A DNA stretch of 64,000 nt from Vampirovibrionales bacterium (GTDB lineage: Bacteria; Cyanobacteriota; Vampirovibrionia; Vampirovibrionales; Vampirovibrionaceae), in NCBI GenBank assembly GCA_029866025.1, contig JARXAD010000002.1, positions 49,688 to 113,687 on the forward strand, given 5' to 3'. This document shows positions 672 through 20,906 of this stretch, one piece after another. The position numbers and the translations under genes were made by a program. Position 1 is the first letter of the stretch. Every line of letters starts with the position of its first letter. The notes under the pieces are model-generated. The model saw nothing but the letters and a program-made list of their open reading frames with translations. It was not told the origin of the DNA and searched no databases.

Positions 672-2408
672 TTAAGTATATGTGTTCGCTGTTTTAATGA
701 ATTCAACTAATTTTAGAATCTCAGCTTTAAATCTATATTTAAAGCTATCTAAAGATGGATTTTGACCAACAACGTGCATAGCAATTTTGACCTTGTCCGC
801 TGATATCTCTTTGTCAGAACGGCTAATAAGGCTAAGAGGATTCTCATAGCGTGTTATTTCTGGCAACCTTGCTGTGGGATGAACTGCTTGTATAGCACTA
901 ATTAGTGTCGCGTCAGGTAAATAATTCTCAATTTCTTTGCCCGCTGTAACCCAACAATGGCCATTGCTACTTTCTGTAAACTCATTACGAACCCGTTCCT
1001 TTGTTTGATTTATTTTCCCACCTGCTCTTTTCTTATCGCTATCAATGATGATTACCATATTTTGATTAATTTTTTTAAGCTGGATAAACTCGTCAATTTC
1101 GTGGTCACTTGCACTTAAATGACTAAGAAGTCGTCCCCCGTAAAACATAATCGAGTAATGTAGCCCTTCTTGAAAGTCAGGTGCTATTTGAGATATTGAA
1201 TAGTTTATATAAGCTCGATCTGAGGGCCCTTCGACCCAAATAATGGCATTTGATTGAAATAGGTCAGATGCAGAGACTCCAAGCTCTTTACATATCATAA
1301 GACGCCCCAAGTCATTCGGAGCATAAGAAACCTTTGTACTTTTCCCATGAAGATAAACATGAAATATAGAGACGTTTTTTTGACTAATGATATGTGACGA
1401 GTGCGTCGTTATAAAATATTGGTTTTTAGTTTTTTCATTTAAGTACGTAATAAATTTTTTTTGAAGTTCAGGGTGAAGATGGAGCTCAGGTTCTTCAATA
1501 CAAATAATTGAATCGCTTTTAACAGTGCAGGCTGCTGCCAAAATTAAGACTTGCGAAATACCTGTTCCTAAATCTGTAAGATTCATTTTTTTCTCATGCA
1601 AAGTAACGTTAATTTTGTCTCTTGTGTGTGGAATTTCAATTTTTGCTGAAGGATCCCCGGTTAAAGCTCTTAAAAAACCTAAGATGTTATCAAATCTTTG
1701 AGAAAATTCTGTTTCATGAGTATCTGGATTCTGTAATTTAGCTAGCTCGTAAATTAAACCTTTTCCGCTTAGCTCCTTTAAAAAATTTACAGGCTCGGAA
1801 TCAATCTCCCTATGTGTAGGAATAAACATTGCTTGAGGAAAGGCCTCGTTTACCTTCTGTAAGTAGGTTCTTAGTATGGACTGCACCTGAAGAGGAGGGC
1901 TAGAGTTATCTTGGCCACTAATATTATGCGCTAATGCACGTATATCTTGATTAAGTAACTCATGAACTCTAGCCCATGTTGTTTCCCCAGAACGACCATT
2001 TTTAGAGAAATCAATCCAAAAAAAGTCTTTTTCTTCAGAAATTTCAGCCATGGAATTTAAAAACGCACTATTTGTATCAGTAATACCTATTACTGGCTGA
2101 AATTTCCCCCTTAATAAATTGTTTAAATAACCGTTAAATAGAACCCCTAATGAAAAGGTTACTTGGCTGCTTGAGTCGTAAATGTGCTGCTCCACTCCCC
2201 TTCCCATTTCATTGCTATCGCATAAAAAACTTAGATCGTTTTTTAATTGTGCGTATATATATTTGAGTATATTTGACTTTCCTGAATTGTTTTTTCCTGC
2301 AAATATGTTTATTTTTGAAAAAGGTCCGATCCTTTGTAGTTCTCCAAAGCTGCGGTAATTCCATATACCTAAGCCCTCTATAAAGAGTGGAACACTATTT
2401 TCAGTCAT
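672..2408 (-). CDS. OLD-family ATP-dependent endonuclease: N-terminal ABC-type ATPase plus C-terminal Toprim domain (GajA/OLD class-like).
   Basis: 578-aa ORF. Walker A is GKNNSGKSNIL near the N-terminus. The C-terminal Toprim signatures are IIWVEGPSDRAY (conserved E) and IIIDSDKKRAGG (DxD). GC is about 33% versus about 52% for flanking genes. Confidence 0.7.
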   Translation of the reverse strand: MTENSVPLFIEGLGIWNYRSFGELQRIGPFSKINIFAGKNNSGKSNILKYIYAQLKNDLSFLCDSNEMGRGVEQHIYDSSSQVTFSLGVLFNGYLNNLLRGKFQPVIGITDTNSAFLNSMAEISEEKDFFWIDFSKNGRSGETTWARVHELLNQDIRALAHNISGQDNSSPPLQVQSILRTYLQKVNEAFPQAMFIPTHREIDSEPVNFLKELSGKGLIYELAKLQNPDTHETEFSQRFDNILGFLRALTGDPSAKIEIPHTRDKINVTLHEKKMNLTDLGTGISQVLILAAACTVKSDSIICIEEPELHLHPELQKKFITYLNEKTKNQYFITTHSSHIISQKNVSIFHVYLHGKSTKVSYAPNDLGRLMICKELGVSASDLFQSNAIIWVEGPSDRAYINYSISQIAPDFQEGLHYSIMFYGGRLLSHLSASDHEIDEFIQLKKINQNMVIIIDSDKKRAGGKINQTKERVRNEFTESSNGHCWVTAGKEIENYLPDATLISAIQAVHPTARLPEITRYENPLSLISRSDKEISADKVKIAMHVVGQNPSLDSFKYRFKAEILKLVEFIKTANTYT

Positions 2409-2535: not shown

Positions 2536-2607
2536 TGGGCCCAGATGGATTCGAACCATCAACCAAGGGATTATGAGTCCCCTGCTCCACCATTGAGCTA
2601 TAGGCCC
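2536..2607 (-). tRNA. tRNA-Met/Ile2 (anticodon CAT), elongator-type. It has a G1-C72 pair and no encoded CCA.
   Basis: Reverse-complement folds as GGGCCTA / GCTC..GAGC / GGGGA-CTCATAA-TCCCT / GATGG-TTCGAAT-CCATC / TGGGCCC-A. The T-loop GTTCGAATC is canonical. Confidence 0.85.
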
Positions 2608-2831
2608 GTGAATTGCCACTTAGTTTAACACGTACAAAGTACAACCATTCACATCATTTGTATAAATAATCTTACTGAAAGCTTATGAGTCCCCTGCTCC
2701 ACCATTGAGCTATAGGCCCGTGAACCTTGGTTCAGTTTAACACGTCCAAAACACATCGGTTCACATCGTTTGTATAAATAATTTTACAGTGAGTTTATGA
2801 GTCCCCTGCTCCACCGTTGAGCTATAGGCCC
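2608..2831 (-). repeat. Two tandem 112-bp units, each a copy of the first 37 nt of tRNA-Met (5' half up to the anticodon loop) plus a conserved ~75-bp spacer.
   Basis: ttatgagtcccctgctccaccattgagctataggccc occurs at 2571..2607 (inside the tRNA), 2683..2719 and 2795..2831 (one SNP). The 75-bp spacers 2608..2682 and 2720..2794 are about 80% identical. Confidence 0.8.
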
Positions 2832-3018
2832 TAATACATACGCTTTTAGAAATACTCTTGCAAGAAGAATAAATCAATTATAACAAAAACATTCACCGCT
2901 GCTATAAAGCGGCAGCGGCCGTACAAAGCGTTCTAGGGCGGGGTTTTTTGTGATAAGGTACTCCTTAGTCGTTTTGACGGATCTCGGTGAATACTCTAGT
3001 TTCTGAAAGTTGTTTTGA

Positions 3019-5511
<2,493 letters not shown>

Positions 5512-5561
5512 TCGCTAAAACAAAACTTTGTAACATTTTTGCAATAAATTGTTCTAATGGC

Positions 5562-5601
5562 CCCCTATAATTTGTTTATACAAGTAAATGAATTATAGGG
5601 G
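5562..5601 (+). promoter_or_regulatory. Perfect 11-bp stem-loop (CCCCTATAATT ... AATTATAGGGG, 18-nt loop) whose 3' arm contains the GGGG Shine-Dalgarno of the downstream ORF.
   Basis: The inverted repeat is read directly. GGGG lies 5 nt upstream of ATG 5607. No U-run follows, so it is not a canonical terminator for gyrB. Confidence 0.45.
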
Positions 5602-5606
5602 TGCTT

Positions 5607-6464
5607 ATGCCAATACGTCCAAAAATTATTATTGCAGATTGCTTTCAAATTAAAACAAAGGACTTAGACGGAGACGGTAAGTTCGATGTAAGCCATGGCG
5701 GCATGGTAAAAATTGCCTTTATGAAACAGCTTAAAGAAAATGGTATTGAGCCAGACCAAGTTGATATTGTTGAAATTGAAATGGACACTGATGGGGATGG
5801 CTACGCCACCTTAGAAGAGTCTGTTGCTCAACATCAAAAAATACTGGACCAGGTTAAAAAAGGAGGTGTATTTTGCGTTTCTTCCTCTATGGGCTTTGTT
5901 ACCAATAAGAAAAAGATGAAGGCCATTTCTGATTCTAAAGAAGCTCGCTATTTAATGCAGGAAGAGAATTGCTATATCGGCGAAATAGCAAGATTGTGCC
6001 CGTATTTTCAGGCTCTAGATAACGACAATCGGAAAACATGGGAAAAGCAGGTAAAAGACGTGTATACCGTTGGAAACCCAATTACAGGGGAAAAAAATCC
6101 CCGTTTACTAATGGATAACTCCTTAACCTTAACCACCACTATTGATGGTTTGGACTTTGACTACAATGGAACCACGGATGTTGTTATACCAGGGTTTTCC
6201 CCCAAAAAAACTGGAGAAAAAAACGAGCTGACTGGAAATTCTTTTGCCACACCGTTTGCTGCAGGAGATGCCGTGGCTCGCTATATACAATCTGATGGCA
6301 AAGCCAGTCCTTGGATTTGCGCAGACCCGATGGCTTCAGATTATTCTCCATGGAATATGCCCAACCGCCCGTCTTATCAGGCACAAAAGAATGCCAAGGA
6401 CACTGGAGTCCCCTTAAAAAAAGAGAAAAAGGCAGAAGAAAAGCAACGAAGAACCAGCGGATAG
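5607..6464 (+). CDS. Divergent subtilisin-like (S8) serine peptidase-like protein without signal peptide, AT-rich.
   Basis: Asp-like IIIADCF, His-like VSHGGMVKIA and Ser motif GNSFATPFAAGDAVARYI (compare subtilisin GTSMATPHVAGAAAL), in D-H-S order. The ORF track starts at GTG 5601; ATG 5607 has the better RBS. GC is about 42%. Confidence 0.4.
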   Translation: MPIRPKIIIADCFQIKTKDLDGDGKFDVSHGGMVKIAFMKQLKENGIEPDQVDIVEIEMDTDGDGYATLEESVAQHQKILDQVKKGGVFCVSSSMGFVTNKKKMKAISDSKEARYLMQEENCYIGEIARLCPYFQALDNDNRKTWEKQVKDVYTVGNPITGEKNPRLLMDNSLTLTTTIDGLDFDYNGTTDVVIPGFSPKKTGEKNELTGNSFATPFAAGDAVARYIQSDGKASPWICADPMASDYSPWNMPNRPSYQAQKNAKDTGVPLKKEKKAEEKQRRTSG

Positions 6465-6483
6465 CCTGCTTTAGAGAAAATGG

Positions 6484-10065: not shown

Positions 10066-11037
10066 ATGTGTTTCCCTACATTTAGGATCCGTATTATGCG
10101 TATTTCTCATATGGCTACAGCTTTTTCGCCCAACTTTGGACAGCGACCAAAAACGGCCTCAAATATAGTCAATTCTACAGATCAACTATCCATTCGTTTT
10201 GGCTCTATACCTTTATCCACCTATATTAATCAGGTGCATGTTTCCATTGTAGAGGGTGATATTTCGCAGCAAAAAGTAGACGCTTGTGTGGTTCCTCAGC
10301 TACTCACCGGATTAAGGGGGGGGGGAGTCTCAGACGCGCTTTACTCTTCGGGAGCAAGAAATGGGGTAAAAGCGTATCAAAATAAAATTGAGACAGGCCA
10401 TACGATGCAATTGGGTGAAGCACTTTGTTGTGAGTCAGGTGGAGGTAATTCAAAGTACTTGATTCATATTGCCACAGGGAAAGATTATTCGGGCTCTGTC
10501 GAAGATGCTGCTTTAGCGAAGCTAAAAGCCCCTACTATTTATAAAAATCCTAATCAAACAGTGGAAAAATATGCTGATATTGCGTTTATTGCCGTTAAGG
10601 AAGGCGTGAAAAACGCACTTGTTCAGGCAGAACGTAAGGGTTTAAGCTCTGTGGCCATTCCCCATATGGCTATCTTCAATTCATTGTTAGAAGTTCAGGC
10701 AGCCGAAGCCACGTTAGGAGGCATTGAAGAATACTCCAAAACAAGTAAAAACCCAGTAACAGTGAAAATTATTGCCTATCAAGATAAAGATAACGCTACC
10801 AAAAATGCTTACCGTGATGTAATACAGACTAAATCGTATGAGAATCCCTTTTGCCCCGTGGGCCTTACCGTTGGAAATTCCTTTGCGACAATGGAGCATA
10901 GGGTTAGAGGCGATAAATTTTTACCACCCATCGCTAAAGCCTTTAAAAAATATTATGCTACAAACGAGGGCTCTACCGATCGCAAATTAAAGGAGCTTAC
11001 CTATCAAACCTTATCTCTGGAAAAGAAAATTGGCTAA
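10066..11037 (+). CDS. Macro (ADP-ribose-binding / deacetylase) domain protein with an extra C-terminal region.
   Basis: VDACVVPQ and GGGVSDALY..G reflect macrodomain-like glycine-rich loops. GC is about 42%. A G10 homopolymer sits inside the coding region. The C-terminus contains GNSFAT, shared with two other ORFs. Confidence 0.5.
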   Translation: MCFPTFRIRIMRISHMATAFSPNFGQRPKTASNIVNSTDQLSIRFGSIPLSTYINQVHVSIVEGDISQQKVDACVVPQLLTGLRGGGVSDALYSSGARNGVKAYQNKIETGHTMQLGEALCCESGGGNSKYLIHIATGKDYSGSVEDAALAKLKAPTIYKNPNQTVEKYADIAFIAVKEGVKNALVQAERKGLSSVAIPHMAIFNSLLEVQAAEATLGGIEEYSKTSKNPVTVKIIAYQDKDNATKNAYRDVIQTKSYENPFCPVGLTVGNSFATMEHRVRGDKFLPPIAKAFKKYYATNEGSTDRKLKELTYQTLSLEKKIG

Positions 11038-20832: not shown

Positions 20833-20906
20833 TGGAGGTGGCACCCAGATTCGAACTGGGGATAGGGGTTTTGCAGACCCCGGCCTTACCACTTGGCGAT
20901 GCCACC
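20833..20906 (-). tRNA. tRNA-Cys (GCA) with encoded CCA.
   Basis: Reverse-complement GGTGGCATCGCCAAGTGGTAAGGC-CGGGGTCTGCAAAACCCC-TATC-CCCAGTTCGAATCTGGG-TGCCACC-T-CCA. Anticodon loop CTGCAAA. Confidence 0.85.

Follow-up and report, generated by a model that had tools for sequence, protein, structure and literature searches.

The stretch of DNA analysed here (64 kb; the window) contains two tRNA genes, tRNA-Ile2(CAU) and tRNA-Cys (20833-20906). ARAGORN places the former at 2535-2607 on the minus strand, where it scores 71.8 bits against the Rfam tRNA model; the mature tRNA, with its CAT anticodon, occupies 2536-2607. Because the gene lies on the minus strand, upstream corresponds to higher window coordinates. 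The CCA end is not encoded, the discriminator A being followed by CAC. In the tRNA-Cys gene, by contrast, CCA stands directly after the gene.

The initial annotation had called this gene a tRNA-Met, which is also the label given by ARAGORN. We assign it to tRNA-Ile2 instead, because in 5,423 E. coli genomes the genes most similar to it (82% over 73 nt) all carry the annotation tRNA-Ile, its antisense strand matches RF04354, an Rfam model covering the plastid trnI-CAU region, and its acceptor stem (GGGCCUA/UGGGCCC) contains the pairs C4-G69 and C5-G68, which we take from the TilS literature to be determinants of tRNA-Ile2. Judged from its sequence, the gene is therefore a lysidine-dependent tRNA-Ile2 and not a tRNA-Met, the modification itself being predicted. 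In tRNA-Ile2 the CAU anticodon is read as isoleucine after lysidine modification, and there is normally one essential gene for this tRNA.

Partial copies of the gene were sought with its 37-nt 5' part, GGGCCTATAGCTCAATGGTGGAGCAGGGGACTCATAA, allowing up to 3 mismatches over the whole 64 kb, with 100 shuffles of the window as control. Exactly three sites were found, all on the minus strand, and the shuffles returned no match. A1 (2571-2607) is the 5' part of the intact gene, the 3' half of which we call C. A2 (2683-2719), a displaced 5' half-copy, has no mismatch to A1, and A3 (2795-2831), the outermost half-copy, has one, in the D-loop, where C replaces T; intact tRNAs from other organisms also have this C. 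These matches bear out the earlier description of the first 37 nt as recurring twice more at a spacing of 112 bp. Allowing up to 9 mismatches revealed neither an additional 5'-half copy nor a second 3' half anywhere in the 64 kb. The period is exactly 112 bp from start to start in both intervals, with the units arranged head to tail; Tandem Repeats Finder (TRF) reports a period of 112 with 2.3 copies and a match rate of 86%. Between the first two copies the exact identity covers 42 nt, made up of the 37 nt and five extra upstream bases (GTGAA).

The boundaries of the half-copies fall on landmarks of the tRNA. The 37-nt part begins with the 5' strand of the acceptor stem and includes the entire anticodon loop (canonical positions 1-38). 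In all three copies identity is lost precisely where the 7-nt loop, CTCATAA, ends on its 3' side, and the bases that follow differ from copy to copy (TCCC, GCTT and ACTC). For A3, identity also stops exactly at tRNA position +1. Read in the orientation of the tRNA, the locus has the order Y-A3-B2-A2-B1-A1+C-low-GC island, in which B1 and B2 are spacers and Y is the outer flank; there are thus three copies of A and two of B.

Both spacers are 75 nt long: B1 lies at 2608-2682 and B2 at 2720-2794 (minus strand). They align without gaps and are identical at 55 of 75 positions (73%), rising to 85% over the central 54 nt. The initial annotation had described a 75-bp spacer, about 80% conserved, after each half; the length and the homology hold, but the ungapped identity is 73% and there are only two spacers. 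The 20 mismatches in 75 positions between B1 and B2 compare with none in 37 between A1 and A2 (Fisher p = 1.5e-4). They are also clustered (p = 0.02), leaving two conserved blocks. One of these, GTAAnATTATTTATACAAAnGATGTGAA, adjoins the junction with the anticodon loop. The other, ACGTGTTAAACT (2742 to 2734 in B2), contains a TAAACT hexamer that ends 14 nt before tRNA +1. Its counterpart in B1, TGTTAAACT (2630 to 2622), is an extended -10-like element, the hexamer of which likewise ends 14 nt upstream of tRNA +1. The -10-like hexamers of intact tRNA-Ile2 genes on other contigs end approximately 16-20 nt before +1. Its match to the consensus makes TGTTAAACT a candidate promoter of tRNA-Ile2; a promoter scan of B1 made no call for this element.

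Several other readings of the spacers were considered. Neither contains an open reading frame (ORF). A structured RNA was rejected, as the predicted structures of the spacers, the units and the whole leader are no stronger than those of shuffled controls (z-scores of -0.7 to +0.7). We also rejected the idea that B is a decayed tRNA 3' half, left from an old array of whole genes: by hand count, its first 36 nt match at approximately 28%, the random level. On inspection, the start of B does not resemble the inverted strand of the anticodon stem, as a tyrosine-recombinase core site would. The initial annotation had proposed looking for the spacer elsewhere in the genome. We found nothing in the 64-kb window, and searches of viral contigs and of phage and plasmid records with the spacer, or with the attP-like combination of spacer and half-copy, were also negative. 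Such collections may contain no elements from this little-sampled lineage.

GTGAAY motifs are concentrated around the array, with seven in 2501-2992 compared with 0.92 per kb across the window, making this the densest 450-bp stretch of the 64 kb. In each spacer one such motif adjoins tRNA +1 and has an inverted partner 39 bp away; in B1 the inverted GTGAAT motifs are at 2608 and 2647. The cluster may represent arm sites or binding sites for a recombination or regulatory protein, a suggestion made post hoc. It lies on both strands and includes three occurrences of GGTGAAT (2501, 2891 and 2986).

The outer flank, Y (2832-2914, minus strand), has a different character. A terminator-like hairpin followed by a T-run (2914 to 2894), called on the minus strand by a terminator scan, precedes TGTTATAAT (2885 to 2877), the hexamer of which ends 45 nt upstream of A3. 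Because of this succession of terminator-like hairpin and TGTTATAAT, Y resembles the start of a gene that was once complete, and we regard it as the candidate promoter region of the original tRNA gene. Its similarity to B is no higher than that of shuffled controls, and we therefore rejected the possibility that Y conceals a degenerate third spacer. According to the ORF list, there is no minus-strand gene to the right of Y that the hairpin at 2894-2914 could terminate. This hairpin may be a relic of a former gene order.

The closest relative available for comparison (L081) encodes a GyrB 86% identical to the one beside the array, and it has no tRNA-Ile2 near gyrB. In L081 gyrB comes after argS; relative to argS, gyrB is inverted between the two (window 2915-6480 versus L081 9224-12810), and the L081 region upstream of gyrB aligns only beside the start codon. 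L081 also carries a 169-aa gene and a tRNA-Ser beside gyrB, both of which are missing here; no remnant of the tRNA-Ser was found next to gyrB in the window.

Local duplication is one possible origin of the array. The initial annotation had considered tandem duplication of a promoter-plus-leader cassette and replication slippage; both predict equal numbers of spacers and half-copies and an even divergence, neither of which is seen. The array shares with slippage-generated minisatellites an exact period and head-to-tail units, but the spacers number one fewer than the half-copies (two B to three A), the divergence is uneven, and both boundaries coincide with tRNA landmarks, the array ending exactly at +1. 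A more elaborate version would have the 112-bp unit (B plus the 5' half) duplicated locally, the A copies kept alike by gene conversion and the outermost spacer lost by rearrangement. We consider this version rather unlikely, although several observations are in its favour. The 112-bp period is exact and the units are head to tail; the -10-like element of B is at the usual position for tRNA-Ile2, so that B could be the native promoter; the inversion of gyrB relative to argS places a rearrangement breakpoint nearby; and identical tracts of 37-42 bp could support gene conversion. But duplication predicts three B for three A, yet Y is unrelated to B, and instead looks like a gene start itself. 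The loss of the outer spacer would need to have stopped exactly at +1, and only chance would place the unit boundary exactly where the anticodon loop ends. Moreover, gene conversion that held A at 0-1 differences should have homogenised B too, whereas B differs at 20 of 75 positions. The excess of A over B and the dissimilarity of Y and B therefore argue that new DNA was inserted at A, and not that local DNA was duplicated.

Given that the source is a metagenome-assembled genome (MAG), a false expansion during assembly, or the joining of strain variants in tandem, also has to be considered. With 20 differences between the units, and no exact repeat longer than 42 nt, a length below the usual assembly k-mers, an error of assembly is an unlikely source of the copy number. 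In addition, such a path can assemble only if there are reads that cross from the anticodon loop into B, and the contig spans 486,615 bp. Overall, an artefact is barely credible: the array is a real, unusual and small structure.

On its other side, the tRNA gene directly adjoins a low-GC segment (1-2534) with minus-strand ORFs. As the initial annotation had noted, the 3' side of the tRNA thus abuts a low-GC island: the GC content is 33-39% at 1-2400, compared with approximately 50% to the right of the array. The segment contains a gene for an OLD-family/GajA-like ATPase-nuclease (672-2408, minus strand), which matches Pfam AAA_15/AAA_21 and, in PADLOC, GajA, AriA and NsnB. Its closest non-self homologues share just 42% identity with this protein and are of scattered origin. 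A second minus-strand ORF, identified by six-frame translation, occupies 1 to approximately 370, runs off the edge of the window and has no PADLOC match. The two genes probably constitute a two-gene anti-phage system. No integrase or recombinase gene was found in the 2.5 kb of the island inside the window, and there was no recombinase among ten other ORFs scanned against Pfam (8.4-24.3 kb of the window).

Using the half-copy alone as the search pattern, we found the identical 37-nt half on 39 metagenome contigs. In every case it belongs to a single intact gene and never to an array; the regions upstream of these genes are unrelated to B or Y. Of the 179 tRNA genes across all sequences compared, the tRNA-Ile2 described here is alone in being accompanied, at a distance of up to 600 nt, by a partial self-copy. 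Relatives at 67-69% identity show no synteny. Among the 80 loci retrieved in a genome scan, identity over the full-length gene does not exceed 60% (a single partial match reaches 69%), and tRNA-Ile2 is present in none of them. The viral contig IMGVR_UViG_3300037833_000006 holds a truncated tRNA-Ile2-like gene, its 3' two-thirds beginning at the D-stem (approximately 2740-2792, minus strand), where ARAGORN calls no tRNA. From its sequence, this fragment has the classic look of a 3'-type phage attachment site for tRNA-Ile2, in another host.

These comparisons also bear on the idea that the array is kept by selection, either because tandem promoters raise the output of tRNA-Ile2 or because the half-copies give rise to 5' tRNA-half RNAs acting as regulators or as decoys for anticodon nucleases. 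The half-copies are much better conserved than the spacers, each B retains a -10-like element, and a defence island adjoins the array, all of which would be consistent with a function. Against it, the 39 other contigs that share this 5' half all lack an array, and none of the 178 other tRNAs compared has a nearby partial copy. The RNA structure, as described above, is no stronger than in shuffled controls. The terminator scan found no terminator after the half-copies, and hence no discrete half-sized transcript is predicted. Selection would, furthermore, account for the maintenance of the array but not for its origin. We regard this explanation as highly improbable.

The boundaries at the anticodon loop point to site-specific integration. 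Crossovers in tRNA genes are most often located in the anticodon loop, as in 2083 of the 3919 islands of the Islander collection (PMC4383910). Islander recognises an island by an intact tRNA gene together with an end fragment in the same orientation, a 5' fragment being located upstream or a 3' fragment downstream (PMC4383910). At the present locus there are two 5' fragments upstream of the intact gene and on the same strand, and their inner boundary is the anticodon loop, which is a recognised crossover sublocation, as are the T-loop and the 3' end. The spacers between fragment and intact gene, on the other hand, are only 75 nt long and hold no ORF and hence no integrase, and the spacing of 112 bp is far from the 2-200 kb that Islander requires of an island. 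The initial annotation had considered a 5'-half array unusual, since integrases normally duplicate 3' halves. Such fragments are indeed the rarer kind, but only in degree, with 159 Islander islands having a 5' fragment and 3760 a 3' fragment (PMC4383910). Islands upstream of arg2 have also been reported in Klebsiella (bioRxiv 10.1101/2020.11.02.365908).

The array resembles the islands made by tyrosine integrases, such as those in Islander and at Klebsiella arg2, in having direct-orientation end fragments on the correct side of an intact tRNA. As in Islander-type islands, the inner boundary is at the anticodon loop, and several fragments are present, as in tandem arrays of islands. It differs from them in that no island or integrase lies between the fragments, which are separated by 75 nt each, whereas Islander rejects anything below 2 kb; in that the only island-like DNA is on the other side of the tRNA; and in that the crossover leads into a candidate promoter and a further copy of the tRNA, rather than into a complementary half that restores the gene. 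Because there is no integrase, and no island between the fragments, the locus cannot be classified as an island by the usual criteria.

One way to reconcile these features is classic 5'-type integration with an attP consisting of B-A, the bodies of the elements having been deleted later between the half-copies and the downstream island being unrelated. As we have seen, 5'-type islands are known (159 of 3919 in Islander, and those at Klebsiella arg2), and both the configuration and the orientation of the fragments fit. Partial tRNAs have been reported as remnants of degenerate elements in islands of Prochlorococcus, and selection on an essential tRNA would shield the promoter arm from deletion. 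The difficulty lies in the deletions. Two independent events would be required, each running from the edge of the anticodon loop to the same position in B, which is very unlikely unless they were site-specific. No trace of an element body remains in the ORF-free 75-nt spacers, and the adjacent low-GC island is left as a coincidence. The need for two later deletions with identical end points makes this version improbable, and we give it only a small chance.

The arrangement could instead be explained if the elements extended in the opposite direction. The array most likely consists of insertion scars at the anticodon loop of tRNA-Ile2. As to mechanism, we tentatively favour two successive site-specific insertions by related elements that carry their own promoter and tRNA copy, a reading that we put somewhat short of even. 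Each insertion would cut the resident tRNA-Ile2 after canonical position 38. The gene would not be restored by fusion; rather, the element would supply a promoter (B) and a copy of tRNA-Ile2 75 bp inside its end, and the remainder of the element would extend downstream of its tRNA as the low-GC defence island. The first insertion would have stranded the native promoter and 5' half (Y-A3), so that A3 would be the 5' half of the original resident gene. A second, related element would then have entered the tRNA copy of the first and stranded B2-A2. The working gene would now be B1-A1-C, derived from the newest element, and the low-GC segment at 1-2534 would be the body of that element. The sequence directly presents the anatomy of the array, its boundaries, its pattern of divergence and its adjacency to the island; that a recombinase acted, that B-A-C is foreign and that the insertions came in this order is what we infer.

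Insertion of such downstream elements explains the sharp boundaries, the missing third spacer, the gene-start appearance of Y, the adjacency of the island and the conservation of the half-copies. The A copies would be nearly invariant because selection acted on each, within a working tRNA, up to its displacement, and the B copies would differ by 27% because the spacers had diverged earlier, in the elements' own lineages. No deletions are needed, since the body of the element would lie downstream of the tRNA. The initial annotation had offered integration with a crossover in the anticodon loop as one possible origin. In light of the boundaries, the dissimilarity of Y and B and the greater conservation of A than of B, this fits best among the origins it named, but no element or integrase is found between the copies. 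If the downstream-element model is correct, displaced 3' halves and a recombinase gene should lie beyond the window's left edge. Counting against it are the lack of a displaced 3' half within the window, of an integrase or recombinase gene in the 2.5 kb of island and the ten other ORFs covered, and of an attP-like B-A sequence in the viral, phage and plasmid collections, as well as the start of B, which is unlike a tyrosine-recombinase core site.

No element is known to us that brings a whole replacement tRNA next to its attachment site instead of repairing the target by fusion. Nor did our literature search, the coverage of which was incomplete, return any report of a tRNA target being replaced by a complete copy from the element, or any array of this kind. 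In its workings the locus is like the attachment-site scars that integrative elements leave. Among known systems, the array resembles most closely the partial-tRNA remnants in the islands (tycheposons) of Prochlorococcus. Streptococcal integrative and conjugative elements (ICEs) provide a further parallel, in that decayed elements flanked by attachment sites can be mobilised in cis. The features shared with the Prochlorococcus remnants and the cis-mobilisable streptococcal elements are the repeated use of the same tRNA site, the outward displacement of older sites and the presence of scars without recombination genes. The Prochlorococcus remnants are, however, scattered among cargo genes, with no regular spacing described, whereas the half-copies here have a fixed 112-bp period beside the intact gene.

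A superficial likeness to a CRISPR array was also considered, as conserved repeats of approximately 37 nt alternate with longer and more variable spacers. This reading was rejected on the grounds of homology between the spacers (73%); in addition, the repeat is part of a tRNA gene and there are only three repeats. In a non-systematic inspection, no cas genes were noticed near the array.

If the preferred reading of successive insertions is right, the element replaces the tRNA gene with its own copy rather than restoring its target, and the locus preserves an ordered record of past insertions. By extension, there might exist a class of integrative elements that split an essential single-copy tRNA gene at the anticodon loop and carry a replacement gene and promoter 75 bp inside their end, a generalisation that we consider doubtful. 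If it were true, each arrival would take over the cell's only tRNA-Ile2 gene and leave a stack of dated 5'-half scars upstream. On the preferred reading as on this generalisation, an essential function, AUA decoding, would be tied to the element, making it costly or hard to lose. Programs for finding islands would miss such a locus, because they seek one fragment at least 2 kb away and on the expected side. If local duplication and gene conversion were responsible instead, the array would be a small curiosity in a poorly sampled non-photosynthetic relative of cyanobacteria. On either reading, no wider consequence is evident without the rest of the contig.

A few features of the neighbourhood deserve mention. 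The GyrB encoded next to the array is 100% identical to MDH4378689.1, from a Vampirovibrionales MAG whose 486,615-bp contig also encodes MDH4378688.1. In gyrB, an essential gene, the first codons contain a run of 11 C at 3038-3048 (plus strand; encoding PPP) that the 86%-identical relative lacks. So long a homopolymer invites slippage or sequencing errors, and the reading frame could be shifted as a result. We considered whether a replication origin might lie nearby, given gyrB and the DnaA-box-like TGTGAAT, and rejected this because the GC skew shows no turn in the window. Following gyrB, a 287-aa ORF (5601-6464) without a family match is situated in lower-GC DNA. Further along, a 323-aa ORF (10066-11037, plus strand) with a weak Macro-domain match coincides with a dip in GC content between genes for a CoA-transferase and a penicillin-binding protein. 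As these two genes are adjacent in the relative L081, the 323-aa ORF looks like another small insertion.
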